Part shown: positions 187-42,036 of the stretch, piece by piece
Position numbering within the stretch: position 1 is the stretch's first letter
How the letters are laid out: the number at the start of each line of letters is the position of its first letter
DNA from: Eubacteriales bacterium
GTDB taxonomy: Bacteria; Bacillota; Clostridia; Oscillospirales; CAG-272
Reading direction: 5' to 3'
DNA: 64,000 bases
Assembly (NCBI GenBank): GCA_045535815.1
Contig: JAZSMJ010000068.1
Coordinates: forward strand, 5,459 to 69,458
Notes under the pieces: model-generated
Databases searched by the model: none
Told to the model about the DNA's origin: nothing
The model's input: only the letters and a program-made list of their open reading frames with translations
Program-made: the position numbers and the translations under genes

Positions 187-233
187 AAAGAAAAAATATT
201 CCCTTGCGAAACACTTCAGGTATTTCGCAAGGG
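187..233 (-). terminator. Rho-independent terminator of the aldolase-sialidase gene
   Basis: Hairpin cccttgcgaaa...tttcgcaaggg at 201-233, followed on the minus strand by a U-rich run (A-rich 187-200 on plus). Confidence 0.7.
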
Positions 234-253
234 AAATCGGTATTCAGCTTTTA

Positions 254-2182
254 TTAATCGCCCGAAACGAAGAAGTTATCGGAATTTTTACTGCCCTCGC
301 CCTTTACGACAAGCTTCTTTATGAACGAATTCTTATCGGTAATGCTTCCGTTCATCATATCTTCCTCTGTAAAGCTTGCAAGGAATATCTCTTTATCGTC
401 AACCCTGTTGAAATCGTAGGTAACGAAAGCTCTTCCGCTTTCGTCGATATGGCCTGCCGGGTAGGAGGTCCATGCACGCTCGTCGAGAAGAAGCTTAGGC
501 TGCCACGTGCGGCACTCGTCCGTGGATATGAACGCCGTCATATTCGAGCGGATATTCGTGTCGTTGTTTGTGACGAGCAGATAATTTCCCGAGGGGAATC
601 TTGCCATATAGCTTCTTGATGAGCAGTGATCCATCAGCTTCTGCGGCTTGCTCCAGTCTCGGCCGAAGTTGAACGATTCGGTGTATGCGATATAATTATC
701 GCATCTGATTATCATATAAATGCTTCCGTCCGATCTCTGAACGATAGCGTTTTCATCAAACGTAGATCTTTCATCGAAGGTGCCGCCAACACGGGTAAGC
801 GGCTTATCGGGGCTCTCGGTTATATAGACGCTTGAATCGCCCCAGTTGGGATAATCGTGGATCTGTCCCTTCCATCTCTGCCAAATGCTTACCGGAAGCA
901 TTACTTTGCCGTCTGCGAGAGTTATCGGAGGGGTTGCCATAACTCCGCTGCAAAGTCTCTTGGGAGCGCTCCATTTAATGCAGTCTCCGTCAATGTCAAG
1001 CTTAATTGCCCAAACTCCGCCTCTGCCGTCCCACCAGTTGTAGGACTGCGCCCAGAAGTGCCATACCGTACCCGCATTGTCACACCACATTATCGGCTCG
1101 TGCATTCTTACCGAATCAATATGGTCGAGAATGCATACGGTCTGCCAGCTGTTACCGTTATCACGGCTTCTCATAATTACGTTGTAATTGTTCGGAGCCT
1201 CGTCTCCGCCAAAGTTGTCTCCGGAAAAAGCACACAGAAGACTGCCGTCAGATGCTCTGCAGGTGCTGGGAGCAGATTGCCATCTTCTGTTTTTGGTGTT
1301 GTAGCAGTCGGCTTCAGACGCTTCTGCTCCGAATATATTTGGGGGAAGCATCGAGCAGTTGACGTCAGGGGTAAGGTTTTCTTTCGTGAAGAATGTCTTA
1401 TTTTTGTAAAGAGAGGATGTGTTACAAGCTCTCTCAAGCTTCCTTCTTGTGTTGAGAGCCTCTTGCTGTATATAGCCTACGTCAACACCGGCAGATATCA
1501 TATCGATTCCCATATTGCTCCAATGCTCGAGCGTCGAAACTGCCGTATCTCCGATTGAAATACCGACATATTTTCCGTTTGCCTTGAGTCTGGAGACGGT
1601 ATCCTCAATAAGATGAGTAGTATTTTCACCGAATATGTTACAAAGCTCGTTTATCGAGCCTGAAAGATCCATCGGACCAAAAATATATCCGTCAATATAT
1701 TCATTCTTCATTATCTCGTCAAGCTCGGCGATGGCATCGGTATGCTCTATCTGAATGAATCTTAAAAGGTTATCTTTTGTATTCCTAACGTAAAACTCAA
1801 CGTCAGAGAAGCCGAAATCTATAGCGTTCATGGGACCGAAGCCTCTGTTTCCATACGGAGGATAGAGAGTAGAGGCTATTCTTTCGTTAGCCTGTTTTGC
1901 AGATCTTATCATAGGGAATATTATTCCGTCCGGCCCCATTTCAAGAACCTTTTTCGTATAGGTAAGATCGTCCTGCGGAACACGGACTATTACTGCAGTT
2001 CCGGTCGTTTTTATGGCGATGATGGCAGACATAAGGCTTTCAAGAGACAAATACGTATGCTCAAGGTCTACCCAGATATAATCGAATCCTGCAAGCCCGG
2101 ATATTCTTGCAGATGCGACATCATTCATATTTAAATGCGTTCCGATGATCTTTTCACCGTTTTTTATCTTTTCTTTTAACAT
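254..2182 (-). CDS. Fusion protein: N-terminal HpcH/HpaI-family (class II 2-keto-3-deoxy-acid) aldolase plus C-terminal sialidase-fold/BNR glycosidase-like domain
   Basis: 642-aa ORF with an AAGGAG RBS. The N-terminal ~250 aa carry HpcH/HpaI motifs (AGFDYIWVDLEH, VIVRVP, YPPYGNRGFG, FIQIEH, IDGYIFGPMDLS). The C-terminal ~370 aa have Asp-box-like motifs (SRDNGNSW, STDECRTW) and are paralogous to the N-terminus of 3143..5221. No signal peptide. Confidence 0.75.
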   Translation of the reverse strand: MLKEKIKNGEKIIGTHLNMNDVASARISGLAGFDYIWVDLEHTYLSLESLMSAIIAIKTTGTAVIVRVPQDDLTYTKKVLEMGPDGIIFPMIRSAKQANERIASTLYPPYGNRGFGPMNAIDFGFSDVEFYVRNTKDNLLRFIQIEHTDAIAELDEIMKNEYIDGYIFGPMDLSGSINELCNIFGENTTHLIEDTVSRLKANGKYVGISIGDTAVSTLEHWSNMGIDMISAGVDVGYIQQEALNTRRKLERACNTSSLYKNKTFFTKENLTPDVNCSMLPPNIFGAEASEADCYNTKNRRWQSAPSTCRASDGSLLCAFSGDNFGGDEAPNNYNVIMRSRDNGNSWQTVCILDHIDSVRMHEPIMWCDNAGTVWHFWAQSYNWWDGRGGVWAIKLDIDGDCIKWSAPKRLCSGVMATPPITLADGKVMLPVSIWQRWKGQIHDYPNWGDSSVYITESPDKPLTRVGGTFDERSTFDENAIVQRSDGSIYMIIRCDNYIAYTESFNFGRDWSKPQKLMDHCSSRSYMARFPSGNYLLVTNNDTNIRSNMTAFISTDECRTWQPKLLLDERAWTSYPAGHIDESGRAFVTYDFNRVDDKEIFLASFTEEDMMNGSITDKNSFIKKLVVKGEGSKNSDNFFVSGD

Positions 2183-2324
2183 TGCATCTTTGCTCCTTTT
2201 TTGTGGATAATTCTATTTTAAAATAACAAATAACGAAAGTAAATTGAATAATTGGCAAAAAACATTGCGTTTCTTGCTGTTATCTGTTATAATAACTTTG
2301 CAAAAAGTAAGGGTAGAGAGATTT

Positions 2325-3128
2325 ATGGCAAGAAATGTGAACTTTTCGTTTAACTCCTCATCGGTAGATTTCGTATATACCGTTGGCAAAAAAAACGTAT
2401 ATAGCGAAATGCAGCTTCATCCGTATTTTGAGCTGTACTTTTTTATCGGCGGAAGCGTAGAATACATAGACGGACATATCCAGCAAAAACTTTCTCCAAA
2501 CAGCCTCGTTGTGATTCAGCCGGGAAGCTATCACCGCTTTCACGTTCCGGGTAATATCGATATATACGAGCGCTGCGTGCTCAATATAAGGCATGACCTT
2601 TTGGAAGGAACCGACCTTGTATCTTTTCTTCGGCAAAGGAGGATACTTGAGCTGTCGGAAAATGACAGAATAACTCAGCATTTCAAATATCTCATATCGT
2701 GCATACCGAATACCGATGTGAAGGATTTTGAGGCAATACTGACCGCTGTAGCATCAGATATACTTTATCTGATAAAATACAGCAGGGAGGGTGAGCCTTC
2801 GGATAAGCCGTCAAGCATTTCCTCTCTTGCAGGGGATATAATGAGCTATATCGACCGAAATTATCAAAAGCAATTAAATCTTGAAGAGCTCTCGGTGACG
2901 TTTAACTATTCGGTATCGCATATAACTCACGTTTTTAAAGAGAAATTTGGTATCAGCATAAAAAATTATATTATACAAAGGCGTCTGAGCTCAGCTCAAT
3001 CGCAGATGCTTTTGGGTGTAAAGACTCAGCAGGCTGCGGCTGGTTGCGGCTTTTCCGATTACGCCTCGTTTTACAGAGCCTACAAAAAGGCATACGGGAG
3101 CTTGCCATCCGAATTGAAGAAGAAATAA
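2325..3128 (+). CDS. AraC-family transcriptional regulator (cupin sensor + HTH_AraC)
   Basis: The C-terminus carries an AraC HTH (LEELSVTFNYSVSHITHVFKEKFGISIKNYIIQRRL...GFSDYASFYRAYKKAYG). The N-terminus is cupin-like. The ATG at 2325 has a better RBS than the TTG at 2244. Confidence 0.85.
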   Translation: MARNVNFSFNSSSVDFVYTVGKKNVYSEMQLHPYFELYFFIGGSVEYIDGHIQQKLSPNSLVVIQPGSYHRFHVPGNIDIYERCVLNIRHDLLEGTDLVSFLRQRRILELSENDRITQHFKYLISCIPNTDVKDFEAILTAVASDILYLIKYSREGEPSDKPSSISSLAGDIMSYIDRNYQKQLNLEELSVTFNYSVSHITHVFKEKFGISIKNYIIQRRLSSAQSQMLLGVKTQQAAAGCGFSDYASFYRAYKKAYGSLPSELKKK

Positions 3129-3142
3129 GATCAAGGTGAAGA

Positions 3143-5221
3143 TCAAGCCTTGATTTTTTCTTTTACGGCAGCAAATATTTCACCTGACGTTATGGTGGCT
3201 GCACCCTCAAGCTCAATTTTTCCGTTGTTTTGGCATTGGCTTTCGGTTGCTGATACAGCGTTTCCGCATATACCGCCTGCACATATATGCTCTATGCAGC
3301 AAATGGATGATACGGTGCCGTTGTTTATGCAGGACTCCATGTGGGAATTTTCCGCAGTTCCTGCTATACCGCCAAGATGCGCAATATCGGCATTGCGTGA
3401 GCATATGCTTCCGTCATTTAGGTTATTTGTAAAACTGATTTTTCCTCCCTTTGCAAAACCGGCTATACCGCCTGCGTGTATGAAGTTGTTGCCTGCAGTA
3501 AACGGAGAATATATATTTGCACTGTTATGGCAATCAGTAACAGCAACGTTGCCGTCGGCTCTGCCAACTATACCTCCCAAAAATTCATATCCTATGACAG
3601 ACACGTCTTTTCCGACCGAGCACGAGCTGACAGTTATCTCATTCTCTCCGTTTGAGTCTGCCCAACCGATGAGCGCTGCGGTATTGTTTCTGCCTTTGAA
3701 ATATGCATTTTCAATATTTACGTTTTTTATTGAACCTGCAGTAACGTATCCGAACAGAGCACGAGTGTGAAGCTCGGGTGCTATCTGCGTAAAATTGGAT
3801 ATTGAGTAGCCTTTTCCGTCATAATGCCCCCTGAATGCTGCCACATTTGAGCCGTGTTGTAAAAAATATCCTATAGGCTGTATATTTGTGCCGCCAAAAT
3901 CTATATCTGCTCGCTGCTCTAAAAACATACCGTCAAACGATATACCTGATGATACGCTTTTAGCAACGTAGCTCAGATGCTGAGGCTTTTCTATCAGAAT
4001 AGGATCGTTCTTCGTGCCGGAGCCTATCGGCTTTTCTGTGTCGGGGAAGGCTGCGGGATGACCCTTTATGCCGGTTTTATCCTTGATTATAAATTTGGTA
4101 CCCGATCCTTCGGTTATAAATTCGCGAGCCAGAACGTCCTCCTCTTTAAATCTTGCAAAAAGTATTTCTGCAGCAACCGTGCGTTCTCTGTCATATTGTA
4201 CGAATACCGTCCCGTCGTCTGCTATCGCTATATCCGGATAAGAAACTCCTTCTCTCTCGTCGAGCATAAGCCCGCCCAGCCAACACTCACCGCCGTCCTT
4301 TGACACGAAAGCGCAAAGCTTGCATCTTGAAGAAGGGGCGGTATCAAAGCTTTCGCCGTGCTTTATGAGAAGTATATTTCCGGAAGGAAGCGTTCGTATC
4401 ATTGCAAGACTTCCAACATGCGGAAATGCTTCCTTCTCGGGAGTCCAGGTAATGCCCCAGTCGCTCGAATACGACTTCTTTATTGACTGACATCGGGAGT
4501 ACATCATAATGCGACCGTCGCAAAGCTCGACTATAGAGTGCTCGTTGAACTGACTGTCCTTGAAGGTTATACCGCCTCTTCTGTGCCAGGTTTCGCCCTG
4601 ATCGACCGAGGCATAAACGTGTGCCCCTCTTAAGCTGTCAAGGTCTGTATGGCATTTTTTTAATATTCTGCAAACGTGCCATCTTTCCCACACTGATACG
4701 GGCAGGAGCCATTCGCCCTTTGAAGTAACTATAGGCTTTTTTAAAGATGCTCCGATGCTTATATATTTAGGATCACTCCATATGGGCTCTTCTGCATCGG
4801 GGTTATCGCATATAATAGCGTAATTTGCTCCTTCTCCATCCCACATTCCGAAAGACTGCTGATAGAAAAGCCAAAGCCTTCCGAGAGGATCCTGCCAAAG
4901 ACATCCAATGTGTGTGTTCATAATAAAAGGATTATTATCGTTATGAGGATCGATTATCAGCTTGATATTATTCCAGCTTTCTCCTCTGTCATCACTGTAT
5001 GTTGCTATAAGATAAGCTCCGGATCCGTCTTCTCCGCCTATCCAGCAGCTCCACAGTCTTCCTTTTTTTGTTATTTCAATGCTTGCCTGCATTGCGAAAT
5101 ACTTATAATTCTGAAAATACTCCACTGACGGCGAAAGCTTTATCTGCGCAGGCTTTTTTATTAGCGCCAAAGCCTCGTTTGAATATATTTTATCGGTTGT
5201 GCATTTTTTTTCAATGATCAT
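3143..5221 (-). CDS. Sialidase-fold/BNR glycosidase-like protein with C-terminal GLUG-motif repeats
   Basis: The N-terminal ~380 aa have Asp-box motifs (YSDDRGESW, SVDQGETW, SSDWGITW, SKDGGECW). The C-terminal ~250 aa have GGIVG/GGIAG/GGIAG/GGICG repeats roughly every 25-30 aa (GLUG type). ATG at 5219-5221 lies 9 nt after a GGAGAGG RBS. No signal peptide. Confidence 0.75.
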   Translation of the reverse strand: MIIEKKCTTDKIYSNEALALIKKPAQIKLSPSVEYFQNYKYFAMQASIEITKKGRLWSCWIGGEDGSGAYLIATYSDDRGESWNNIKLIIDPHNDNNPFIMNTHIGCLWQDPLGRLWLFYQQSFGMWDGEGANYAIICDNPDAEEPIWSDPKYISIGASLKKPIVTSKGEWLLPVSVWERWHVCRILKKCHTDLDSLRGAHVYASVDQGETWHRRGGITFKDSQFNEHSIVELCDGRIMMYSRCQSIKKSYSSDWGITWTPEKEAFPHVGSLAMIRTLPSGNILLIKHGESFDTAPSSRCKLCAFVSKDGGECWLGGLMLDEREGVSYPDIAIADDGTVFVQYDRERTVAAEILFARFKEEDVLAREFITEGSGTKFIIKDKTGIKGHPAAFPDTEKPIGSGTKNDPILIEKPQHLSYVAKSVSSGISFDGMFLEQRADIDFGGTNIQPIGYFLQHGSNVAAFRGHYDGKGYSISNFTQIAPELHTRALFGYVTAGSIKNVNIENAYFKGRNNTAALIGWADSNGENEITVSSCSVGKDVSVIGYEFLGGIVGRADGNVAVTDCHNSANIYSPFTAGNNFIHAGGIAGFAKGGKISFTNNLNDGSICSRNADIAHLGGIAGTAENSHMESCINNGTVSSICCIEHICAGGICGNAVSATESQCQNNGKIELEGAATITSGEIFAAVKEKIKA

Positions 5222-5385
5222 AGTCAATAACCTCTCCTTTGTTCAAAATCTGTACCGTATTTTCAGTATATCACCTGCTTGAGAGTCAGTCAATTTCAAG
5301 AGAGTGTACTTAATTGGTATTTTTTTGCGAAAAAGGTTGAGAAAATTATACTTTTGTGTTATAATCTGTGTGGAGGTGTTAAACG

Positions 5386-6390
5386 GTGTTTGATACCAAT
5401 AAAAATATAAATCGATACGGAGATATGCTTTTTGATCTATCCGATCCTGAGACCCGAGAAGGGCTCATATCAGCCGCAAAAGCTATTTCGCATCCTCTGA
5501 GGATCGAAATGCTTAATCAGATAATAAGAATGCCAAGATCTATAACCGATCTTTCAAAGCTTAATCACGTAAGCAATTCGACCGTTATTTTTCATTTGAA
5601 TATTCTTGAGGAAAGCGGGCTTGTTTTCAGCAAGGTTAAACCGAATAAAAAAGGGAAAACCCTGATGTTTTATATAAATTTCTCACATATGAGCTTTGTG
5701 CTGGAAAACAACAAGTCGAATGATTCGGTAACCGTATCTGAGCAAAGCATGGGCGTGGGAAACTATATATCCGCATCTGTTGACGAATATATCAGAATAG
5801 CAACACAAAGCAGATTTACCGTTTTTGAAAAAGATGATATGTATAATCCCGAAAGATTTGATGCAGGGCTCATCTGTATTGATAACGGAGAGATATCCTA
5901 TGCTTTTTCCAATGCCTTTGCCAAGAAAAATAAAGTTGATAAAATAGAATTTTCAATGGAATTATCCTCAGAATCTCCTTATTACTGCAACGATTGGAAG
6001 AGTGAAATATTTTTTTCGGTCTGCGGTGTGGAGGTAGCCTCATATCTTTCGTTGGGAGATTTCGGAGGAGAACGCGGAAAGCTGAATCCGTCGTGGTGGG
6101 ACAGTAAGTATTCGCAGTACGGAGTGCTTACAACGGTCGGCGTCGATGAGGAGGGGGTAACCCTTAACGGAAGAAGGGTCCGTTCGGATCTGACTTTGTC
6201 AGATATAGATCTGTCCGAAGGCGATTATATAACCCTTTCATTAAGGACCGATCCTAAATCTCAGTATGCAAGCGGCTTTAATATATACGGCAGATATTTT
6301 GGAAATGAAAAGCAGGATATTCTGATGAAATTTATATCGTATGATAGATGTAAAAACAAGCTTGCCTCAACGGAGAAGGAAAATGAATGA
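5386..6390 (+). CDS. ArsR-type winged-helix regulator with a large uncharacterised C-terminal domain
   Basis: The N-terminus ISHPLRIEMLNQIIRMPRSITDLSKLNHVSNSTVIFHLNILEESGLV is an ArsR-like HTH. About 230 aa of unassigned C-terminal domain follow. GTG start follows a GGAGGTG RBS. Confidence 0.65.
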   Translation: MFDTNKNINRYGDMLFDLSDPETREGLISAAKAISHPLRIEMLNQIIRMPRSITDLSKLNHVSNSTVIFHLNILEESGLVFSKVKPNKKGKTLMFYINFSHMSFVLENNKSNDSVTVSEQSMGVGNYISASVDEYIRIATQSRFTVFEKDDMYNPERFDAGLICIDNGEISYAFSNAFAKKNKVDKIEFSMELSSESPYYCNDWKSEIFFSVCGVEVASYLSLGDFGGERGKLNPSWWDSKYSQYGVLTTVGVDEEGVTLNGRRVRSDLTLSDIDLSEGDYITLSLRTDPKSQYASGFNIYGRYFGNEKQDILMKFISYDRCKNKLASTEKENE

Positions 6391-6482
6391 CTGTAAATTG
6401 AAAAATAGATATTCGCCTCTTCTGCTTCTGATAGCCGTTATTACAGCGCTGCTTTTGCAGGCTCAACTATTGGTTGCAAAAA
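6382..6482 (+). repeat. Copy B: non-functional remnant of the 5' end (start codon + signal sequence) of the VanY-type lipoprotein gene, fused to the copy-A tail
   Basis: 6395-6461 is about 90% identical to 11636-11702. 6451-6482 is 31/32 identical to 128-159. It reads as a 39-codon ORF (6383-6502, MNDCKLKNRYSPLLLLIAVITALLLQAQ...) that lacks the lipobox Cys. Confidence 0.8.
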
Positions 6483-6525
6483 TCCCCATCGGAAGACATT
6501 AAACGCACTTCCGATGGGGATTTTA
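6476..6525. terminator. Bidirectional rho-independent terminator
   Basis: 14-bp stem atccccatcggaag/cttccgatggggat, flanked by an A-run and a T-run. Confidence 0.75.
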
Positions 6526-6529
6526 GGTA

Positions 6530-7438
6530 TCAGAGTTGTTTTGACGACCTTTTATTTACGGCCGATATGCCTATGCTGACCAGCACGAGCGAGAGAGCAT
6601 ATTGCCAGGTAAATATATTTTCCGAGAGAAAGATTCCCGAGAGGATAGTTCCGGAAATCGGTATGACAAAGGCAAAAACGCTGACCGTGCCAAGCGGATA
6701 GCTTTTTAAAAGATAGCTCCACAGAGTAAATCCGACAGAGGATACCATAACAAGATACAAGAGCACCAAAATGCCCTGAATCGAAACCGTAAAAGGCTCC
6801 TTTGTACCTATAGCTCCGACGGCTATAAGAAGCGCACCGCCTATCAGAAGATTGTATCCGCTGACGTTATAGCAGGAGCTTTTTGCAGTTGCCTTTTTGT
6901 TTATAATTGAGCCTATAACGAAGAATAACGAGGCGAAGCAGATGAAGCCCTCTCCAAGAAAGGAAACTACGTTCACATTGCCGTTTGCAAAGCAGGCGAT
7001 TACTACACCTGCAAAGCCGATAATGCTGCCAATCAGCTTTCCCGGGCTCATTTTGTCGTTTTTATAAATGAAATGAGAGATTATCACCGACATAAACACA
7101 GACGTCGAGGATACTACAGATCCAGATGCTCCCGTGGTGTTTGAAAGACCTACGTAGAAGAATATATACTGCAAAAAGGTGTAGGTTATGGCAAGCAGAA
7201 GAATATTCCTTCCGTTTCCCTTCGGTATGCGCGGAAGACTGCGACACCGTATCGCTTCAAATAAAAGAACCACGATGCCCGATATGAAAAATCTTATTCC
7301 GGCAAAGAGAATCTTCTGAAAAACGCTCTCACCTATTCCGAAAAGCTGATAACCTATCTTTATCGCAGGAAAGGCGCTTCCGAAAAGAATATTGCAGAAA
7401 ACCGCGTAAAGTATAGCTTTTGCGTCGAGGATTTTCAT
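6530..7438 (-). CDS. EamA/DMT-family transporter
   Basis: Multi-TM protein of about 300 aa with two EamA-like halves. Its ATG overlaps the upstream stop codon (ATGA at 7435-7438), which suggests translational coupling. Confidence 0.8.
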   Translation of the reverse strand: MKILDAKAILYAVFCNILFGSAFPAIKIGYQLFGIGESVFQKILFAGIRFFISGIVVLLFEAIRCRSLPRIPKGNGRNILLLAITYTFLQYIFFYVGLSNTTGASGSVVSSTSVFMSVIISHFIYKNDKMSPGKLIGSIIGFAGVVIACFANGNVNVVSFLGEGFICFASLFFVIGSIINKKATAKSSCYNVSGYNLLIGGALLIAVGAIGTKEPFTVSIQGILVLLYLVMVSSVGFTLWSYLLKSYPLGTVSVFAFVIPISGTILSGIFLSENIFTWQYALSLVLVSIGISAVNKRSSKQL

Positions 7439-8487
7439 TCGGATACACTCTTGCAAATGCTTTCTACAGGCAGTATAGCAAGCTCGCAGTCCTCTTTGTT
7501 CTTGGCATATACGACATAAAGAAAGCCGCCGTCCTCATATGCATAGGGATAGCACCATTCGTTTGCAAGCCAATATTTTGGCGGAGCATCAAAGCCGTGT
7601 CGGATAAGATACGATTTTTCAAAGCTTCCGTTTTTACCTACCGCAATGCAGAGCGTATCTCTGTGATTTTCCTTCTTGGTGCTGTATACGAGATAGTCTA
7701 TGCCGTTTGACAGACTGCCGGCATACATTTTACTTGGTGTAATAGGGAAGTTGGTCATTTCAAGAGGAGTCCAGCTCGTTCCGAAATCGCTGCTGCGGCT
7801 GATAAGTGCACAACCTATTTCGTCAGAGCTGCGGATTATGGCGAGTAATTCTTTGCCACAGCTTAAAACGGTCGTCTCTCCCCATATTGCAAGTCCCTGA
7901 GGATTGGGAATGATCTTCATCTCCCATTTTGTGATGTCCTCTCCGTCGCATACTGCAACTGCTGCCTGTGCATCGAGAGTCTTTAGGCCTGCCATTATAA
8001 TAGTGCCGTTATCTGCCTTAAAGGGCTCGCAAAGCGGCCAGAAATCAGCATCAAGAACTACCCCGAGAGGAGTGTATGAGCCGTTTTCTTCAAGACGGTA
8101 CCCCTCCGTTACAAGATCGGGATAACCGGGGCCGTGACCGTATCTTGCCTTGGGGCAAAATGCGTAAAGAGTGCCGCCGTTCTCAAAATAAACCCCGTGA
8201 CTTCTGCCCCAGCCATCCGTCTTATCGGATATGCGCTTGTAATCTCCCCATGAAATGCCGTCATAAGAGCATTTTTCGGCAAGTATGGTATTGTCATCGT
8301 TTTCAAATCGGTATGAGTTGGCAAAGGAGATTCGAAGAAGTCCGTTATGCTTAACTATTGCGGCCCCCAAAAGGAACTGATAGTCACCGTCTATAGCGGT
8401 GTGAACCTCTATATGTCTTATTCCTTCTATATTTGACAGCTCTCCGAAGGCAGGAAAAGAGCTTTTTCCATTCCATAAGTTATACAT
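7435..8487 (-). CDS. Sialidase-fold/BNR protein (standalone catalytic-type domain, second paralog type)
   Basis: 350 aa with Asp-box SSDFGTSW. It aligns along its whole length with residues ~215-560 of 8507..10726 (HFLLGA.I.KH.G.L, FWPLCEP, VWGET, VVYAKNKEDCELAI). No signal peptide. Confidence 0.7.
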   Translation of the reverse strand: MYNLWNGKSSFPAFGELSNIEGIRHIEVHTAIDGDYQFLLGAAIVKHNGLLRISFANSYRFENDDNTILAEKCSYDGISWGDYKRISDKTDGWGRSHGVYFENGGTLYAFCPKARYGHGPGYPDLVTEGYRLEENGSYTPLGVVLDADFWPLCEPFKADNGTIIMAGLKTLDAQAAVAVCDGEDITKWEMKIIPNPQGLAIWGETTVLSCGKELLAIIRSSDEIGCALISRSSDFGTSWTPLEMTNFPITPSKMYAGSLSNGIDYLVYSTKKENHRDTLCIAVGKNGSFEKSYLIRHGFDAPPKYWLANEWCYPYAYEDGGFLYVVYAKNKEDCELAILPVESICKSVSE

Positions 8488-8506
8488 AATATTCGGCCTT
8501 TCTTTT

Positions 8507-10726
8507 TTATTCTGTAATTTCTACAAGCTTAAGTGAGGATATTGCAAAAACGGTGTCACCCTCCGAGAGAGCGTTATCGTTTCCAAAAATAATGAAGAAT
8601 GAATTGAAATCACGAACATTGAAGGAGCCGCCTATAGAATTAAAGGTGATAAACCAGGTGTTCCAGCCTTTTTCAATGCTTTTCCAAAGCTGTTTGCTGC
8701 TGCTTACTCCGTAATCAAGGCGGGTCTTGATATCATAATCTCCCGGCTTTGAAAGATTATTTCCGGATTTAGATACAGAATTGCCCCAGAACATACGGTA
8801 TACAGTAGAGGGATCGGTGATTTTCTTTGAGCTGTAAAAGGTCATAACGAAGCCGAGGCGGTCTATATCAGTCTTTGACAGATCAACGTTAAAGTGACGT
8901 CTCAGTGTTTGGTTGCCGGCTGATATGGCGGTTGAAGACTGCTTGCGGCATACTGCGTTAACACCGTCTATTTTTTCATAGGCAACGTTATTTTTACCCG
9001 TAGAGCCGTCGCCTGTCCACCATGAGTCCGAGTCAACAAGCTCGCAGATAACTGTATGCTCGGGAATGGCAACATCCTTACCTGCGTATGCCTGCTCGTA
9101 GAGTACGGACTGATAGTTGGGATCGTAATCCTTAGGCTCTATAGATGAAAGAGGTACTATAGCAAGCTCGCAGTCCTCTTTGTTTTTGGCGTATACCACG
9201 TAGAGATTTCCGTCTGCCTCGTATGCATAAGGGTAGCTCCACTCATTCGACGCCCAGTAAACAGGCTTGGAATCAAATACGTTTTTGAGAATATATGACG
9301 TGGTAAATCCATAGGATCCGTCCTTTTCTCCTACCGATATCATCATAGTTGCACGCGAACCTAAGTTGTAAACTATATATTTGCTTCCTGTGCTGAGAGT
9401 ACCGCCGTATACCTTTGAATCGGCAATATTGAAATCTGAAAGAGTAAACGAGGTCCACGTTTCACCGTTGTCAAAGCTTTGGCTTACCGCCATTTTTGAA
9501 GATGCCGATCTTATAAATGCAACAAGTCTGTCACCGTAATCGACGACCGATGTCTCTCCCCACACAGAAAGATTGTTTTTGTTCGGAAGTGTTATCATTC
9601 TCCACGAGGTAAGGTCATCTCCGTCAGATATTGCAACTGCCGGAGCAGCACCGCTTTTGCAGTTGAGCCCTGCAATAAGAATGTTTCCGTTTTCAAGCAC
9701 CATAGGCTCGCAAAGAGGCCAGAAATTCTCATCAAGGACGGTGCCGTGCGATTCCCAACTCATATCCTCGCAAAGTGTATATGCTTCCATAACCAGACCG
9801 GGGTATCCTCCACCGTGACCGTACATCGCCTTGGGGGCAAACGCCCAGACTGTGTTCTCGTATTCAAACAGAACTCCGTGGCTTCTTGAATAGCGTCCTT
9901 CAGGACCCGCTATTACAACCTCTTCGCTCCATGTCTTACCCATGTCGTAGGAATACTTGCAGGCAAATCGTGAGCCTGAATCGTTTTCGGTAAGGAGTCC
10001 CTGGCCGTAGGCGCAGATAAGAAAACCGTCGTGCTTTATGATAGATGCGCCCAAAAGGAAATGGTGTCCGTCTGCCTGAGCCTTATGTACGGAAACGTAT
10101 TCAATATCCTCAGCAAAGGTAACATCGCCGTTTTTGGGGTTAAGCTTTGCGTTATTTATAAGCTCCATATCAGGGTAGATCTCCTCCGTGGGTTTTTTAA
10201 GCAGGTTAAATGACAAAATTGAAACGTCAATAGCATCTATAAACATATCGGAATTTATATCAGCTGATGCGTATGCAGCCGGTCCTGCAGACTTTCCGAT
10301 ATCGTATGATAAAGCCGAAACGTCACCGGCGTCAATAAAGCCGTCTCCGGTAATGTCACCGGGAGTAAGAGCAATTTCCGATATTCCGGGAATATACGTC
10401 TCGGTAAGATCAATGCTTGAGCTTACGTCGATGCCCTTTACAGTGTATCCAAGATTGTTACCGCCAGATATAACAAGATCGTATATACCGCTCTCAAGTC
10501 CCGAGAGAGAGAATTTACGTTCGATAGCATCAGAGCTCTTTACGGGCTCAAGGATAGTGTGGCATATCTCAATTCCGTTACAAAGGGCGGTAATTTTAGT
10601 TTCGGAATAGTTGAAATAACCGATTATGTTTCCGCTTATACCGAAGTCAGCTGCATAAACTGTAAACGATACTGATAATAGAATTAAAGCAAAAGCAAAG
10701 GTAAATAAAATCTTAATTTTTTTCAT
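8507..10726 (-). CDS. Secreted dockerin-containing sialidase-fold/BNR protein with a C-terminal CBM-like domain
   Basis: Signal peptide MKKIKILFTFAFALILLSVSFTVYA, then an Ig-like module. A dockerin duplicated motif follows (GDITGDGFIDAGDVS...ADINSDMFIDAIDVS). The BNR domain has SYDMGKTW and SFDNGETW. The last ~190 aa are beta-rich. Confidence 0.75.
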   Translation of the reverse strand: MKKIKILFTFAFALILLSVSFTVYAADFGISGNIIGYFNYSETKITALCNGIEICHTILEPVKSSDAIERKFSLSGLESGIYDLVISGGNNLGYTVKGIDVSSSIDLTETYIPGISEIALTPGDITGDGFIDAGDVSALSYDIGKSAGPAAYASADINSDMFIDAIDVSILSFNLLKKPTEEIYPDMELINNAKLNPKNGDVTFAEDIEYVSVHKAQADGHHFLLGASIIKHDGFLICAYGQGLLTENDSGSRFACKYSYDMGKTWSEEVVIAGPEGRYSRSHGVLFEYENTVWAFAPKAMYGHGGGYPGLVMEAYTLCEDMSWESHGTVLDENFWPLCEPMVLENGNILIAGLNCKSGAAPAVAISDGDDLTSWRMITLPNKNNLSVWGETSVVDYGDRLVAFIRSASSKMAVSQSFDNGETWTSFTLSDFNIADSKVYGGTLSTGSKYIVYNLGSRATMMISVGEKDGSYGFTTSYILKNVFDSKPVYWASNEWSYPYAYEADGNLYVVYAKNKEDCELAIVPLSSIEPKDYDPNYQSVLYEQAYAGKDVAIPEHTVICELVDSDSWWTGDGSTGKNNVAYEKIDGVNAVCRKQSSTAISAGNQTLRRHFNVDLSKTDIDRLGFVMTFYSSKKITDPSTVYRMFWGNSVSKSGNNLSKPGDYDIKTRLDYGVSSSKQLWKSIEKGWNTWFITFNSIGGSFNVRDFNSFFIIFGNDNALSEGDTVFAISSLKLVEITE

Positions 10727-10748
10727 TTTCTGTATGACCTCATTTTAT

Positions 10749-11435
10749 TTATTGTTTTTCGGTTAAATCACTCAGGTTATTGAATATGCCGTTTACGTGG
10801 AAAATCATAGCCTTTTCTGCCTCATTTGCAGATCCCTTGGCTATTGCCGAGACAATATCCTTATGCATTGATATCGCGTGCACGCCGTTTCCTTCAACAG
10901 CGAAAAGGTTAGCTCTGTAATCGGTAAGCTTTTCGTTCAGTATAGATAATATGGAGATCAGCACCTCGTTTTTTGAAAGCTCGGCTATCTTCATATGAAG
11001 ACGGTCGTCACTCTCCGCCATGCCGATGGGGTCATTTTTAGCATATGCATCCTCGTATCTGTAAAGCAGTCCCCAAAGGAACGTAACCTCATCCTCGCTT
11101 GCGTTTTTGGCTGCAAGTGATGCGCAGAGCGGTTCGATAGCTCTTCTTGCTTCAAGGATATCCTTTAAAGCGTACTTATTTTTTGCAAGCCAGCCTGATG
11201 CACTTTTGCTTTCACTCGGCAAATCTTCAGATACGAACGCACCGCGACCGGGCTTTATTTCAACGTATCCCGCCGCCTCAAGTGAGCGCAAAGCCTCTCT
11301 GAGACTTGTTCTGCTGACCGATAGAGTGGAGCAAAGCACTGCTTCAGACGGAAGCTTTTCTCCAAGCGGATACGCTCCCGACTTTATGTTTTTTCTAAGC
11401 TGTTCAAAAACGGTATTTGCAACTGTTTTTTTCAT
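10749..11435 (-). CDS. GntR-family regulator, FadR subfamily (FCD domain)
   Basis: The N-terminus is a GntR HTH (LPSEAVLCSTLSVSRTSLREALRSLEAAGYVEIKPGRGAFV). The C-terminus is an all-helical FCD-like domain. Confidence 0.85.
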   Translation of the reverse strand: MKKTVANTVFEQLRKNIKSGAYPLGEKLPSEAVLCSTLSVSRTSLREALRSLEAAGYVEIKPGRGAFVSEDLPSESKSASGWLAKNKYALKDILEARRAIEPLCASLAAKNASEDEVTFLWGLLYRYEDAYAKNDPIGMAESDDRLHMKIAELSKNEVLISILSILNEKLTDYRANLFAVEGNGVHAISMHKDIVSAIAKGSANEAEKAMIFHVNGIFNNLSDLTEKQ

Positions 11436-11622
11436 ATGGACCTACCTTAAAGTTGTGATATTGTATGACATCGTACAATATTATAACACGACGATATCAT
11501 TTTGTCAATAGATTATCAGGAACACCCACAAACTTAATTGAAAAACTATTGTTTTTCCTGCAAAGATTAGTTATAATAATGTTGATAACGTGTAAAAAAA
11601 AGTCAGATAAACGGAGAATTAT

Positions 11623-11702
11623 AATGAATTACCGTAAGTTAAAAAATAGATATTCGCCTCTTCTGCTTCTGATAGCTGTTATTTTAGCGCTGATTTTGCA
11701 GG
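11623..11702 (+). repeat. Copy C: the intact, functional version of the repeated signal-sequence segment, inside the VanY-type gene
   Basis: See copy B. It encodes MNYRKLKNRYSPLLLLIAVILALILQGC with an intact lipobox. Confidence 0.8.
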
Positions 11703-12691
11703 GCTGTGACGGCAGCGAGGGCGCTGTTATAACCGAGCAGACGAGCGAGGGCACGGATGCCGAAGCCGTTATCGAGATGACTAGGGCCGAGCAGGATGAA
11801 ACGGAGGAAACCGTTGAATATACCGAAACGGAACCCGAAGTGCAGAGTGAAACAGAGCCTGAATCTCTTACGGAAACAGAGCCCGAATCGGAGGACGAGG
11901 TATATACAGAGCAAAGCGTCGGTGTGACCGATATAAGCCTTTCAACCTATGACGTCAGCATAATAGTAGGGCAGTCAAAAATGCCTATCGTTACCATGTA
12001 TCCCGAAAATGCCACCGATAAGGGCGAGAAATGGGTAAGCTCGGATGAATCGGTCGCAAGCGTTAATTGGTACGGTGATATCCTGGGAGTCTCCGAGGGT
12101 GAATGCACCGTAACGGTCACCTCGACGGATAATCCAGAGGTGTTTGCAACCGTAAACGTTAAGGTAACGCCGGACGTTGAGTGCACCTACATAGATGGAA
12201 TACTCATAGTTAACAAGACCTATCCGCTTCCCATGAGCTATGCTCCCGGGAACGATCAGGAGGCGGTGGATGCGCTGTACGTTATGTTTGCCGCCGCAAA
12301 GGAGGAGGGTCTTACGCTTTTTGTCAAATCGGGCTACAGAAGCTATATCGACCAGAAGATAATATATAACGATTACGTTGCAAGAGACGGACAGTCGGTC
12401 GCCGACAGATATTCCGCACGCCCCGGACATTCGGAGCATCAGAGCGGTCTTGCCTTTGATCTGAACTCGCTTATGCAGGATTTCGGAGAGAGCCCGGAGG
12501 GAATATGGCTTGCCGAAAACTGCTATAAATACGGATTTATCATAAGATACCCCAAGGATAAAGAAGAAATAACCGGCTATATGTACGAGCCCTGGCACGT
12601 TCGCTATCTTGGAATAGATACGGCAGAGAAGGTATATGAAAGCGGCCTATGCCTTGAGGAATATCTCGGGATAACGTCGTCGTATTCGTGA
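11624..12691 (+). CDS. Lipoprotein D-alanyl-D-alanine carboxypeptidase (peptidase M15B/VanY family) with acidic linker and Big_2-like domain
   Basis: Lipobox LILQGC, an ETEPE-type acidic repeat linker and a Big_2-like segment. VanY motifs are SGYRSY, SEHQSGLAFD and EPWHVRYLG. The ATG at 11624 has an RBS, and the longer annotated N-terminus is unlikely. Confidence 0.8.
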   Translation: MNYRKLKNRYSPLLLLIAVILALILQGCDGSEGAVITEQTSEGTDAEAVIEMTRAEQDETEETVEYTETEPEVQSETEPESLTETEPESEDEVYTEQSVGVTDISLSTYDVSIIVGQSKMPIVTMYPENATDKGEKWVSSDESVASVNWYGDILGVSEGECTVTVTSTDNPEVFATVNVKVTPDVECTYIDGILIVNKTYPLPMSYAPGNDQEAVDALYVMFAAAKEEGLTLFVKSGYRSYIDQKIIYNDYVARDGQSVADRYSARPGHSEHQSGLAFDLNSLMQDFGESPEGIWLAENCYKYGFIIRYPKDKEEITGYMYEPWHVRYLGIDTAEKVYESGLCLEEYLGITSSYS

Positions 12692-12734: not shown

Positions 12735-13958
12735 ATGAACGGTACAAAACAAAATCTTTCGGTGCGCTTTGCATATTTGGTTATAGGCGTTATTGCTATG
12801 CTGTTTGCAGGTATACTGTACGCATGGTCTATTTTGAAATCGCCCCTGTCATCCGAGTTTGGCTGGGGTGCATCTCAGCTCGCTCTGAACTTTACGCTTG
12901 CTATGAGCTTTTTCTGTATAGGCGGACTGCTTGGAGCCAAGCTGTCAGGACGGTTTGGTCATCGGATAGCACTGATCGTCAGCGGTATACTGTCTGCGCT
13001 GGGATTCGTAATGACCGCCCTTTTGCCCGGCACGTACGTATGGATGCTTTACGTTACGTACGGAGTTTTGGCAGGCACGGGGATTGGTATAGCGTATAAC
13101 GTAGTTATCGCTACGGTAAGCGCTTGGTTCCCGGATAAGAAGGGGCTTTGTTCAGGATGTCTTATGATGGGCTTTGGCGCCTCTGCGCTGTTGCTCGGTA
13201 ACGTGGCAGATGCAATGTTCAAGGGCAGCTTCGGATGGCGCAAGACCTATATGATATTGGGGGCGGCGATCTGTGCCGTTATGATAATCGCAGGATTTTT
13301 ACTCAGAAAGCCCGGCTCTGACGTGATCTTCCCGCAGCCGACTGCTTCTAAAGCATCGTCGGGTGAGAGCTTTGAGCGCAAGGATTATACGTCGACTCAG
13401 ATGCTGAAGCGTCCGTCCTTTTGGATGGCGTTCGTATGCATTTCATTTCTTGCGGCGGTCGGAAGCTCGGTCATAAGCTTTGCAAAGGATCTGGCTCTGT
13501 CTGTGAATGCTCCCGAATCCCTTGCGGTGTCCTTGGTTGGAGTTTTGTCTGTCTGTAACGGCATTGGACGAATAATCACAGGTGCTGTTTTTGATGCCAT
13601 CGGGCGCAGAAAAACCATGCTGTGTGCAAATTTCCTTACCGTCTGTGCCGCTACCGTTACCCTGATAGCAGTAACCGTAGGATCCTTGCCGCTGTGTATT
13701 GCAGGACTGTGCCTGACGGGAATATCGTACGGATCGTGTCCCACCATCACCGCCGCCTTTACGTCTTCGTTTTTTGGAATGAAGCATTTCTCAACCAATA
13801 TGGCGCTTATGACGTTTACGGTAATGGGCGGATCGCTTATAGCAACCGTGTCAAATAAAGTTTTAGAGGCAACGGGCGGATATACCGCCGCATTTGCGAT
13901 GCTTCTTTTGCTTACGCTGACGGCATTGGTGCTGAATTTCTTTATTCGCAAGCCATAA
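12735..13958 (+). CDS. MFS transporter, oxalate/formate antiporter (OFA)-like
   Basis: 12-TM profile. The N-terminal motif VIGVIAMLFAGILYAWSILKSPLSSEFGW is typical of OFA-type MFS proteins. Confidence 0.8.
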   Translation: MNGTKQNLSVRFAYLVIGVIAMLFAGILYAWSILKSPLSSEFGWGASQLALNFTLAMSFFCIGGLLGAKLSGRFGHRIALIVSGILSALGFVMTALLPGTYVWMLYVTYGVLAGTGIGIAYNVVIATVSAWFPDKKGLCSGCLMMGFGASALLLGNVADAMFKGSFGWRKTYMILGAAICAVMIIAGFLLRKPGSDVIFPQPTASKASSGESFERKDYTSTQMLKRPSFWMAFVCISFLAAVGSSVISFAKDLALSVNAPESLAVSLVGVLSVCNGIGRIITGAVFDAIGRRKTMLCANFLTVCAATVTLIAVTVGSLPLCIAGLCLTGISYGSCPTITAAFTSSFFGMKHFSTNMALMTFTVMGGSLIATVSNKVLEATGGYTAAFAMLLLLTLTALVLNFFIRKP

Positions 13959-13963
13959 AACGG

Positions 13964-13992
13964 TTGCAACGGCTAAGTGCGTATGCTATAAT
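13964..13992 (+). promoter_or_regulatory. Sigma-A-type promoter driving the retron ncRNA/RT
   Basis: TTGCAA (13964-13969), 17-nt spacer, TATAAT (13987-13992). Confidence 0.65.
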
Positions 13993-13996
13993 AAAG

Positions 13997-14181
13997 TGAA
14001 CAATAGTGTTATTCCGCTAAGGCAGAAGCCGTAAGCGAGTCGCTTACGGTATACAAAAAATTGATCGTATTCGCAAGCTCAGATGAAAATGCTCGGAGTA
14101 ATCCCACACTTCGTGTGTCAATGCGGCCCTGCCGCATGACATTACACCTGCGCTTTTCATTATACAAATTAGTATTGTTCA
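13997..14181 (+). ncRNA. Candidate retron msr-msd non-coding RNA
   Basis: It lies between the promoter and the RT start. The terminal inverted repeats are a1 tgaacaata (13997-14005) and a2 tattgttca (14173-14181). Internal hairpins are ccgtaagcg/cgcttacgg (14029-14049) and an imperfect stem tgtcaatgcggc/gccgcatgaca (14116-14141). Confidence 0.6.
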
Positions 14182-14193
14182 AGGATTTTTGTT

Positions 14194-15120
14194 ATGATAG
14201 TGTACAAGGAGCTTTCTTCAATCGAGAGGGATCTCGGTATCCCTGCAAAAACGCTCTACGGAGTCAGTAATAATATATCGGCACATTACCGAAAGGTTAA
14301 GATTCCCAAAAGGGACGGAAGCTACCGTGTGCTGTCCGTTCCGGACGAGGTGCTGAAAAGGATACAGCGATCTATCGCCCTGAATCTTTTGGCATACGAG
14401 GAGATCTCGGTATACGCAAAGGCCTACAAGATAGGTGCAGGCGTGAAAAATAACGCTCTGCCGCATATCGGAAAGAGCTCTGTGCTAAAGCTGGATATAC
14501 GGAATTTTTTTGACAGCATTACCTATTCCTCGGTAAAAGAAAAGGTCTTTCCCGAAAATAAATATTCGGAAAAGATCAGAATACTTCTATCCATGCTCTG
14601 CTATTGCGGTGAGGTGCTTCCTCAGGGTGCGCCTACCTCGCCCGTCATTACCAATATCATAATGAGGGATTTTGACGAGACAGTCGGCGCATGGTGCGCT
14701 CTGCGCTCGGTAAGCTATACAAGATACTGCGACGATATGACCTTCTCGGGAGAGCTTGATACCGATGAGATCATAGAGTTCGTTTCGGATCAGCTTAAAA
14801 AGCGCGGCTTGTTTTTGAATAAAAGCAAGACTAAGCACGCACGTTTTGGTCAAAGACAGACCGTTACCGGAATAGTCGTAAACCAAAAGATAAATATATC
14901 GAGCGAATATAAGCGCAAGATAAGGCAGGAGGTCTTTTATTGCCGTAAATTCGGTGTAGAGGGGCATCTTGCGAGGATAGGGGAGGATATTTCACCCGCA
15001 AAATATTTAAGCAGTCTTATGGGACGCATAAACTACGTTTTGCAGATGCTTCCCGAAAACGAGGAGTTCAAAGGCTACAGATCAGCCGTCTCCGATATGA
15101 TAAAAAATGAAAATAAATAA
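14194..15120 (+). CDS. Retron-type reverse transcriptase
   Basis: 308 aa with motifs NALPH (NAxxH), LDIRNFFDSI, LPQGAPTSPVITNI, YTRYCDDMTFS (YxDD) and the retron-typical VTGIVVN. Confidence 0.85.
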   Translation: MIVYKELSSIERDLGIPAKTLYGVSNNISAHYRKVKIPKRDGSYRVLSVPDEVLKRIQRSIALNLLAYEEISVYAKAYKIGAGVKNNALPHIGKSSVLKLDIRNFFDSITYSSVKEKVFPENKYSEKIRILLSMLCYCGEVLPQGAPTSPVITNIIMRDFDETVGAWCALRSVSYTRYCDDMTFSGELDTDEIIEFVSDQLKKRGLFLNKSKTKHARFGQRQTVTGIVVNQKINISSEYKRKIRQEVFYCRKFGVEGHLARIGEDISPAKYLSSLMGRINYVLQMLPENEEFKGYRSAVSDMIKNENK

Positions 15121-17636: not shown

Positions 17637-18235
17637 TTTAATACCTCCAAAAGTTTTTTGCAGTTTTCACGGATATTTCCTTTTGTGATAAAGCTTCCGC
17701 CGACTGCGGCTATTTTATCGCAGCTCAAAAAATCTTTTATGTTTGAAATATCAACGCCGCCCGTCGGAATGAATCTTATCTGAGGAAAGGGGGCAGAAAG
17801 GGCACGTATTGCCGAAAGCCCTCCGTATATATCTGCGGGAAAGAATTTAACTGTGGTTATACCAAGTGATATTGCTTTGATGATCTCGGTAGGTGTAACG
17901 CATCCGGGTATGTAGGGGATATCGTTTTTTCGGCATACCGACAGAACATCCTCGCTAAGTCCGGGCGAGACGATAAATTCAGCGCCGCAATCGATTGCAA
18001 TCTCTGCCTGCTCCGAATTTATTACGGTGCCTGCGCCTATCTTCATATCCTTAAAGCTTTCACATCCAAGCTTTATTGCGTCAGCGGCGCACTTGGTTCT
18101 GAAGGTTATCTCTGCGCAGGGAATTCCTGAATCCTCGAGCGCGGTGAGGGTAGGCAGGGTGTCACTTATATCGTTTATGACTACGACCGGTATCACTCTG
18201 CATGCGGGTATTATCTTATCCGTTATATCAAACAT
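17633..18235 (-). CDS. eda: KDPG/KHG aldolase
   Basis: Eda-family motifs (IPVVVI, EITFRT, GAGTV, FIVSPG, VKFFPA). The start is taken at MFDITDK. Confidence 0.8.
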   Translation of the reverse strand: MFDITDKIIPACRVIPVVVINDISDTLPTLTALEDSGIPCAEITFRTKCAADAIKLGCESFKDMKIGAGTVINSEQAEIAIDCGAEFIVSPGLSEDVLSVCRKNDIPYIPGCVTPTEIIKAISLGITTVKFFPADIYGGLSAIRALSAPFPQIRFIPTGGVDISNIKDFLSCDKIAAVGGSFITKGNIRENCKKLLEVLK

Positions 18236-40209: not shown

Positions 40210-40229
40210 ATTGATTTTATGCGATAATT

Positions 40230-42030: not shown

Positions 42031-42036
42031 GTAGAA

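Follow-up and report, generated by a model that had tools for sequence, protein, structure and literature searches.

Three conserved sialidase-fold modules in a gut Clostridia genome and their possible role in harvesting 3-deoxy-2-ulosonic acids

Enzymes that release acidic keto-deoxy sugars from rhamnogalacturonan II (RG-II) have been described in Bacteroides thetaiotaomicron. [quoted passage not shown] Kdo hydrolase and KDNase are among the activities of family GH33 (PMC9120202). D-Kdo is secreted by B. thetaiotaomicron, and Kdo pathways of other gut microbes are unconfirmed (bioRxiv 10.64898/2026.03.13.711244). Here, a cluster of four sialidase-fold genes with interspersed regulator and permease genes was analysed in an uncultured Eubacteriales bacterium (Clostridia; Oscillospirales; CAG-272). 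It lies at positions 254..11435 of a stretch of 64,000 nucleotides (GenBank assembly GCA_045535815.1, contig JAZSMJ010000068.1, positions 5,459 to 69,458 of the forward strand). This whole stretch is called the window in the following, and coordinates refer to it.

The region consists of three conserved modules placed side by side. They are tentatively read as a means by which gut Clostridia harvest bound 3-deoxy-2-ulosonic acids, with Kdo and Dha of RG-II as the best guess; we place this reading just short of evenly balanced. In its workings, the locus resembles a nan cluster or the Bacteroides steps on chains C and D of RG-II, and it is a member of neither. New with respect to these systems are a fused class II aldolase, a putative EamA importer, cellulosome-style display and two propeller families that lack a defining feature each, the RIP arginine of GH33 and the match to the Pfam model of GH143. 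On the minus strand between 254 and 10726, four intact open reading frames (ORFs) each matched the Pfam family BNR_2 (PF13088) above its cut-off:

254..2182, minus strand: Type 1a, fusion of an HpcH/HpaI aldolase and a propeller (HpcH_HpaI 85 bits, BNR_2 77 bits)
3143..5221, minus strand: Type 1b, propeller with a GLUG tail (BNR_2 93 bits; tail by structure match)
7435..8487, minus strand: Type 2, bare propeller of 350 amino acids (aa), predicted cytoplasmic (BNR_2 53 bits, sole Pfam domain)
8507..10726, minus strand: Type 2, secreted protein of 739 aa (signal peptide; Pfam Dockerin_1 and BNR_2)

Two sequence types can be distinguished. The Type 1 proteins share 32% identity over 333 aa (E 4e-44) and the Type 2 proteins 47% over 346 aa (E 2e-98). 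Nothing significant was found between the types by BLASTP; their profiles align with an hhalign probability of 98.7% (E 1.5e-16), pairing the Type 2 and Type 1 residues E62/E328, E204/E477, R219/R493, R276/R545, Y313/Y574 and K331/R593. By this alignment, both types carry one predicted active-site variant, made up of two canonical arginines and a basic residue on the last blade. The predicted catalytic residues are kept in all four proteins. No NCBIfam model was found for any of the four propellers, and the domains do not fall into a well-characterised family with an unrelated substrate. An N-terminus resembling a signal peptide (MKKIKILFTFAFALILLSVSFTVYA, followed by AD) was seen in the 739-aa protein only. 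The original prediction, made from the letters and translated ORFs, had named four paralogs in two types, one of them secreted and three without signal peptide, with aldolase, GLUG and dockerin additions. All of this was borne out (HpcH_HpaI and Dockerin_1 by Pfam, the GLUG tail by structure). Its description of the tail of the secreted protein as similar to a carbohydrate-binding module (CBM) was not, as the 209-aa tail had no Pfam match even at E ≤ 1.

The aldolase provides a link to a class of sugar. Residues 1-250 of Type 1a have the Pfam match (85 bits against a cut-off of 25) and the residues of a class II aldolase, and the best match in the Protein Data Bank (PDB) was YfaU (E 6e-33). 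His42, Arg67, Glu146 and Asp172 align to the YfaU motifs IDGEH, Arg, VQVE and GPADL; from YfaU and HpaI, we take His and Arg to be catalytic and Glu and Asp to bind the metal. The domain thereby resembles the HpaI, GarL and YfaU/RhmA aldolases, but its scores against the NCBIfam equivalogs stayed far below the cut-offs (HpaI 145 vs 369, GarL 121 vs 393-407, RhmA 120 vs 441), and it differs from them in being fused or adjacent to Type 1. On these scores, it is classed as a distinct HpcH/HpaI subfamily outside the HpaI, GarL and RhmA equivalogs. The fused domain and the stand-alone HpcH genes beside Type 1 genes form an ortholog group of their own.

The partnership of propeller and aldolase recurs in relatives, whose loci and proteins carry L and P numbers here. 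The HpcH–Type 1 fusion is kept in about 20 protein clusters from gut Clostridia. In L083 and L085, unfused Type 1 genes have a stand-alone HpcH gene nearby whose product is 43-53% identical to the fused domain. In L087, which holds the closest Type 1b homolog on a long contig, such an aldolase gene overlaps the stop codon of that homolog. In L084, eda and a PfkB kinase gene follow directly downstream of an unfused Type 1 gene. Type 2 has a similar partner in L004, where it stands after a DHDPS-family aldolase gene, behind a GntR/FCD gene and beside rhaABD. This recurrent pairing of a sialidase fold with pyruvate aldolases is the strongest evidence that the propellers would release a 2-keto-3-deoxy acid. 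In the literature searched, no description of an HpcH–sialidase fusion or of such a locus was found, nor anything relevant on dockerin–BNR proteins in the rumen or on a Dha aldolase.

Within Type 1a (642 aa), Pfam places HpcH_HpaI at residues 16-235 and BNR_2 at 313-583; the aldolase is followed by a GH33-like six-bladed propeller at about 290-620. Type 1b has BNR_2 at residues 56-343, the propeller at about 40-395 and a GLUG beta-helix at about 395-692. Its start is the ATG at 5221, which gives the recorded product of 692 aa, and a longer ORF extends to a TTG at 5227. Both proteins are predicted to be cytoplasmic. The C-terminus of Type 1b reached 20.1 bits against Pfam Glug and was thus marginal (cut-off 20.5). 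An AlphaFold model of the tail (predicted local distance difference test, pLDDT, 92.3) matched the GLUG beta-helix 3N6Z best (E 1e-7; query TM-score, TMq, 0.69), followed by IgA1-protease beta-helices. The architecture of propeller and GLUG tail is kept in six relatives (P0166, P0167, P0169, P0173, P0177 and P0233). The Type 1 family is large with 1275 proteins at E ≤ 1e-10, counted in a homolog search with the propeller of Type 1b alone.

Type 1 is best compared with GH33, including the Kdo hydrolase of BT1013. Its family profile matched GH33 crystal structures with E values of 7e-17 to 1e-12, while the similarity of single sequences to characterised sialidases was marginal (E 6e-6 at best). 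Both have an Asp-box six-bladed propeller. In the profile alignments, E477, R493, R545 and Y574, which are invariant in Type 1, fall on the Glu-Arg-Arg-Tyr positions of sialidases, where these have the partner Glu, arginines two and three of the triad and the Tyr that acts as nucleophile. E328, with a conservation of at least 90% in Type 1, aligns with the acid/base Asp of Clostridium perfringens NanI, for which we assume the usual residue numbering; this position is Glu and not Asp in Type 1a, and it is D67 in Type 1b. The tyrosine nucleophile, its Glu partner and the acidic acid/base are therefore found, but the arginine triad that binds the carboxylate is incomplete, since Ser or Gly stands in the place of the RIP arginine. 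The invariant D590-x-x-R593 on the last blade aligns where sialidases place the Glu holding the first arginine, and R593 may stand in for the RIP arginine. Type 1 also differs from GH33 in its cytoplasmic location and in its fusion to HpcH aldolase or GLUG, not to CBM40 or GH78. As far as the alignments go, it is assigned as a divergent GH33 relative that has retained the Tyr/Glu pair along with two arginines of the triad.

The Type 2 family is small: at E ≤ 1e-30, 237 representatives were counted among 1.84 billion. A PDB search with the single sequence of the bare protein found nothing, and with the secreted protein only the dockerin. The best PDB match of the family profile was the N-terminal propeller of BT1020 (5MQR, E 1.8e-6), and GH33 structures followed at about 1e-3. 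Invariant Type 2 residues in common with BT1020 (5MQR/5MQS) are K253, R276, Y313 (the Tyr of YP) and Y327-x-x-N-K331-E-D of the last blades. An AlphaFold model of the bare protein (pLDDT 94.5) matched sialidase-fold structures; in Foldseek, 5HX0, a structure of unknown function, ranked first and 5MQR 24th (E 1.7e-11, TMq 0.66). As 5MQR ranks behind 5HX0 and GH33 structures, the sialidase-like fold is not specific to GH143. BT1020 acts on an acidic ketoside, as is proposed for Type 2. The family differs from GH143 in that it lacks a match to the BT_1020 propeller model PF24067, a fusion to GH142 and a polysaccharide utilisation locus of the Bacteroides type; it occurs as a bare cytoplasmic protein of 350 aa or as a secreted protein with a dockerin. 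On profile evidence, Type 2 is tentatively classed as a small separate family with the GH143 domain of BT1020 as its nearest solved relative.

In the secreted protein, an N-terminal module of about 95 aa precedes a type I dockerin (Dockerin_1 at 122-174, 32.6 bits against a cut-off of 22.9) and the propeller at 186-530 (BNR_2 at 260-510). The 209-aa tail is kept after the catalytic domain in every secreted relative of loci L017-L024. Type 2 relatives have additions of dockerin, Golvesin_C, Laminin_G_3 or HpiC1-like modules, as in secreted glycosidases. No match to cohesin families was found among the scanned ORFs of the window, and anchoring to a cellulosome is for this reason inferred from the dockerin. 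A second dockerin protein is encoded at 46107..48842 on the minus strand. It is a GDSL/SGNH esterase with the same signal peptide and N-terminal module and has 41% identity over 184 aa to the secreted Type 2 protein. Immediately upstream of its gene lies that of a 773-aa lipoprotein resembling penicillin-binding proteins (PBP) (48870..51191, minus strand).

The genes around the propellers are as follows:

199..235, minus strand: hairpin resembling an intrinsic terminator (16-bp stem, then a T-run), 19 nt past the Type 1a stop codon
2244..3128, plus strand: AraC-family regulator (Pfam HTH_18 and AraC_binding), divergent from Type 1a
5386..6390, plus strand: ArsR/HTH_5-type regulator (Pfam HTH_5), divergent from Type 1b
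6530..7438, minus strand: EamA/DMT-family permease (Pfam EamA 99 bits), last gene of the Type 2 operon
10749..11435, minus strand: GntR/FCD regulator (Pfam GntR and FCD), first gene of the Type 2 operon
11480..11508, minus strand: sigma-70-type promoter (TTGACA-17-TATAAT, extended TG, 12/12), best in the region and predicted by its consensus match

Module 1 comprises the AraC gene and Type 1a and ends at the strong terminator (235-199). The AraC protein is 37-46% identical to the AraC proteins encoded divergently from the fusion in L006, L008 and L009, so that the divergent arrangement of fusion gene and orthologous AraC gene is found in all three loci. The alignments start at residues 34-38, and translation probably begins at the ATG at 2325. 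Module 2 is formed by the divergent genes of the ArsR-like regulator and Type 1b, with facing promoter-like sites between 5221 and 5386 (5293-5265 for Type 1b and 5337-5365 for the regulator). The ArsR-like protein has a C-terminal domain of about 230 aa without an assigned family; its counterpart in L087, encoded divergently from the Type 1b homolog there, shares 47% identity with it over 315 aa. Module 3 is an operon that starts with gntR, continues with the genes of the secreted and then the cytoplasmic Type 2 protein and ends with eamA; the gaps from gntR onward are 22, 19 and -4 nt, and the ATG of eamA overlaps the Type 2 stop codon as ATGA (7438-7435). The permease is 59% identical to the EamA protein adjoining Type 2 in L016. 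Type 2 was paired with EamA in seven loci from gut-derived Clostridia metagenome-assembled genomes (MAGs) and with GntR/FCD in ten loci from Clostridia and Planctomycetota including Gimesia. The original prediction correctly named the three regulators and the permease, but had them interleaved with the propeller genes as one unit. Each regulator is instead the conserved partner of its own module, which makes co-regulation of all four propeller genes unlikely.

A classical nan cluster was rejected, as the defining genes nanA, nanK and nanE were absent: no match to the NanA, NanK or NanE families was found among the ORFs scanned in the first 20 kb of the window (1..20 kb). This agrees with what had been predicted. 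The locus shares with nan clusters, including that of Ruminococcus gnavus for intramolecular trans-sialidase (IT-sialidase) and 2,7-anhydro-N-acetylneuraminic acid (2,7-anhydro-Neu5Ac), an extracellular sialidase-fold enzyme, a candidate importer, a pyruvate-yielding lyase and a NanR-like GntR/FCD regulator. It differs in its class II HpcH aldolase fused to a glycosidase-like domain, in an importer candidate of the EamA/DMT type and not of the ABC (ATP-binding cassette), SSS (sodium:solute symporter) or MFS (major facilitator superfamily) type, and in the extra cytoplasmic paralogs of the putative glycosidase. Two further genes of keto-deoxy acid catabolism are found in the window:

16617..17636, minus strand: kdgK (NCBIfam sugar-kinase models)
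17633..18313, minus strand: eda (NCBIfam 222 bits, above cut-off)

Their presence near the cluster had been predicted and was confirmed, but they are separated from it by unrelated genes for VanY, an MFS transporter, a retron reverse transcriptase (RT) and spoIVB. They are possibly a downstream route that is not contiguous with the cluster. The MFS gene (12735..13958) was considered as an importer and rejected, being of the lactate/oxalate-formate type, on the other strand and beyond the unrelated VanY gene.

We infer the following scheme of enzyme activities, substrate sugar, transport direction and sequence of steps. The secreted Type 2 protein with its dockerin and tail would cut a ketosidic bond outside the cell, on the fibre surface, setting free the acid sugar itself or one of its small glycosides. 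The small acidic product would be imported by EamA, whose gene is translationally coupled to the operon. Inside, the cytoplasmic Type 2 and the two Type 1 enzymes would hydrolyse remaining glycosides of ulosonic acids. These would use the retaining mechanism of sialidases with Tyr as nucleophile and Glu as its partner, Glu or Asp as acid/base and a clamp on the carboxylate that is formed by two canonical arginines together with an Arg or Lys relocated to the last blade. The clamp is hypothetical, as the RIP arginine is missing from both types. The putative metal-dependent aldolase domain of Type 1a would finally cleave the freed 2-keto-3-deoxy acid, giving pyruvate plus an aldehyde; the latter would be D-arabinose from Kdo and a C4 aldehyde-acid from Dha. 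Each module would be switched by its own regulator, AraC, ArsR-like or GntR/FCD.

Several points suggest Kdo and Dha as substrates. The two propeller families parallel the GH33 and GH143 pair with which B. thetaiotaomicron attacks chains C and D, relatives neighbour pectin or rhamnose genes, namely, GH28 (L003), GH106 (L085) and the rhamnose catabolism genes of L004, and the Kdo released by Bacteroides lacks a known consumer. By our own chemical reasoning, Dha also fits as the C7 homologue of the diacids on which GarL and HpaI act. The prediction of an acidic keto-deoxy sugar as substrate is thus supported by the recurrent aldolase partners and the relation to BT1020; the specific sugar is a guess.

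A number of observations weigh against this assignment to bound Kdo and Dha. The three modules have separate regulators and hence possibly different substrates. The partnership with eda and a kinase of the KdgK kind in L084 points to a C6 keto-deoxy acid (2-keto-3-deoxygluconate, KDG) and not to Kdo or Dha. Among the scanned ORFs of the window, no GH78, GH106, GH127, GH137-142 or beta-L-arabinofuranosidase was found, and the window holds no oligosaccharide ABC transporter. An EamA/DMT permease seems too small for oligosaccharides, which leaves the three cytoplasmic glycosidases without explanation. The RIP arginine is missing from Type 1, where the Ser of WQSAP (Gly in distant relatives) takes its place, and, in the family alignment inspected by eye, from Type 2. 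The alignment of Type 2 to 5MQR covers chain residues 280-405, approx. 115 residues in the last third of the domain. PF24067 was unmatched by 32 of 32 Type 2 members even at E ≤ 1; this model spans the N-terminal part of the propeller. Neighbourhoods of relatives are mixed (GH172, GH32, IU_nuc_hydro, a ManD-like dehydratase and M14-like proteins), and sulfatases lie near those in Planctomycetota and Verrucomicrobiota. The clustering of loci from these phyla was dominated by sulfatases, PSCyt/PSD/DUF1501 and DUF7133, families that were judged generic to the phyla and uninformative on the substrate.

The same enzymology could serve a microbial substrate, either Kdo of the Gram-negative lipopolysaccharide (LPS) core or capsule, or a different ulosonic or nonulosonic acid of bacteria, for instance 3-deoxy-D-glycero-D-galacto-nonulosonic acid (Kdn), pseudaminic or legionaminic acid. 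This is rather unlikely in our view. Kdo hydrolase and KDNase are recognised GH33 activities, as cited above, the gut is rich in LPS and the window holds no enzyme for the RG-II backbone or side chains. In addition, M14-like proteins beside unfused Type 1 genes (L009, L083) would suit N-acylated sugars, and the fusion in L006 has CTP_transf_3, SIS and ROK genes in its vicinity. However, Type 2 has its nearest solved relative in an RG-II enzyme, pectin or rhamnose genes adjoin relatives, dockerin display is typical of plant-fibre degraders and nonulosonic acids are normally cleaved by class I lyases of the NanA type and not by HpcH aldolases. It is very unlikely that the proteins are true sialidases acting on N-acetyl- or N-glycolylneuraminic acid (Neu5Ac, Neu5Gc) of host or dietary sialoglycans. 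The label exo-alpha-sialidase given to relatives at NCBI, the sialidase-like fold with its Tyr, Glu and Arg residues and the best NCBIfam match of the GntR protein, NanR (111 bits, though below the cut-off of 260), would speak for it. These are opposed by the lack of nanA, nanK, nanE, nanT and CBM40 among the ORFs of 1..20 kb, the missing RIP arginine, a partner lyase that is a class II HpcH aldolase or Eda and not NanA, the marginal single-sequence similarity given above and the frequency of relatives in marine and soil Planctomycetota and Verrucomicrobiota.

The cytoplasmic propellers might instead act on free sugar acids and feed the aldolase as lactonase, as hydratase of anhydro or unsaturated acids or as cycloisomerase. 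Three of the four proteins lack a signal peptide, the sole transporter is a small-molecule permease and relatives adjoin a ManD-like dehydratase, aldolases, KDG kinase and GFO/IDH/MocA oxidoreductases, all of which would suit such a role. It is nonetheless quite unlikely, given that the constellation of sialidase-type nucleophile, acid/base and arginines is kept in both types, that many Type 2 relatives are secreted proteins with lectin-like or dockerin modules attached and that no similarity to known lactonase families was found. Finally, the three modules may adjoin by chance or local duplication, with unrelated substrates and no single utilisation locus. The three regulators and transcription units are separate, modules occur alone in most relatives and a full-length Type 1 gene was present in only two of about 65 other Type 2 loci, L046 (Pirellulaceae) and L056 (Verrucomicrobiales). 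A 125-aa Type 1 fragment stands at a contig end in a further Type 2 locus (L027). We consider a chance arrangement unlikely, as co-location of both types recurs in Planctomycetota and Verrucomicrobiota, both share the unusual active-site variant and both are linked to pyruvate aldolases.

The harvest of bound ulosonic acids can be worded more boldly. The HpcH domain and its stand-alone orthologs would then be the gene products behind Kdo aldolase (EC 4.1.2.23) or a Dha aldolase, Types 1 and 2 would be new GH families or deep subfamilies of exo-ketosidases with a relocated third basic residue, and the locus would define a route, the first in a Gram-positive organism, for those keto-acid sugars of RG-II which Bacteroides sets free without consuming them. 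This extended claim is doubtful. Kdo aldolase activity was cited only via enzymology of 1966-1990 in the literature searched. In a bolder variant, the secreted Type 2 would free an anhydro-ulosonic acid in the manner of IT-sialidases, EamA would import it and the cytoplasmic Type 2 would re-open it.

Further observations were made on the neighbourhoods of relatives. An M14-carboxypeptidase-like family of about 400 aa (L009 11933-13153, L083 5026-6219) and a family without Pfam match of 409-495 aa (L084 11031-12260, L085 9239-10726) recur, poorly annotated or without annotation, beside fused or unfused Type 1 genes and are not found in the window. One Type 1 relative (P0122) is fused to an IU_nuc_hydro domain with a nucleoside-hydrolase fold. 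Directly upstream of the Type 2 gene in L001, there are two IU_nuc_hydro genes (8134-11035), with another BNR_2 gene, a ManD-like dehydratase, a fucose/D-arabinose isomerase and GH172 nearby. The Type 2 gene of L056 lies between two genes for GFO/IDH/MocA oxidoreductases (94-3403), and one such gene is present in four other loci; this recalls the NanOx/YjhC step in the use of 2,7-anhydro-sialic acid.

The rest of the window contains housekeeping genes and the second dockerin protein. Beside the gntR operon, divergent from it and with a common promoter region, lies the gene (11465..12691, plus strand) of a VanY-type D-Ala-D-Ala carboxypeptidase. The protein is secreted and combines a Big_2 domain with an acidic linker of low complexity. 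Within 13959..15120, the retron-type RT (14194..15120) matched RT_Ec107-like in PADLOC (422 bits) and retron St85 in NCBIfam just below the cut-off (218 bits). A hairpin-rich intergenic region of 235 nt upstream of it is likely the msr/msd RNA, and no obvious effector gene stands beside the RT. A lysine riboswitch (41862..42027, minus strand; Rfam RF00168, 76 bits) was found upstream of a gene of a Na+/H+-antiporter family (40230..41783). At 38797..43575, a large serine recombinase gene directly follows the his operon; next come a DUF4145/type-I-restriction-endonuclease-like protein, a fragment resembling MzaA and a tRNA. The stretch may represent a small integrated element or an islet of defence genes.

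DNA nearly identical to that of the region occurs in metagenomes from the gut and manure of cattle, sheep and pigs. In two gut metatranscriptomes, there are short contigs with 99-100% identity to parts of the secreted Type 2 gene (8613-8841, 8920-9188 and 9800-10000). Metatranscriptome contigs also cover parts of the EamA gene (bins 6004-7337), and none lies on the Type 1 genes. Being few and short, they are weak evidence for expression of the secreted Type 2 protein in vivo. Few sugars of plant cell walls are rarer than Kdo and Dha; both are contained in green-algal thecae as well (Becker et al. 1989, as cited in PMC3355719), and Kdo is part of every LPS. The marine Planctomycetota and Verrucomicrobiota relatives could act on such thecae.

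The locus brings two uncharacterised sialidase-fold families into view, a large and a small one. The automatic label exo-alpha-sialidase is probably wrong for them, and counting these proteins as mucin-degrading sialidases would mislead microbiome surveys. The catabolism of Kdo and Dha after their release is essentially unmapped. If the proposed harvest of ulosonic acids holds true, the locus would provide candidate genes for the missing steps, i.e. ketosidases, an importer and an aldolase, and it would be an example of cross-feeding on pectin side chains in the guts of herbivores.

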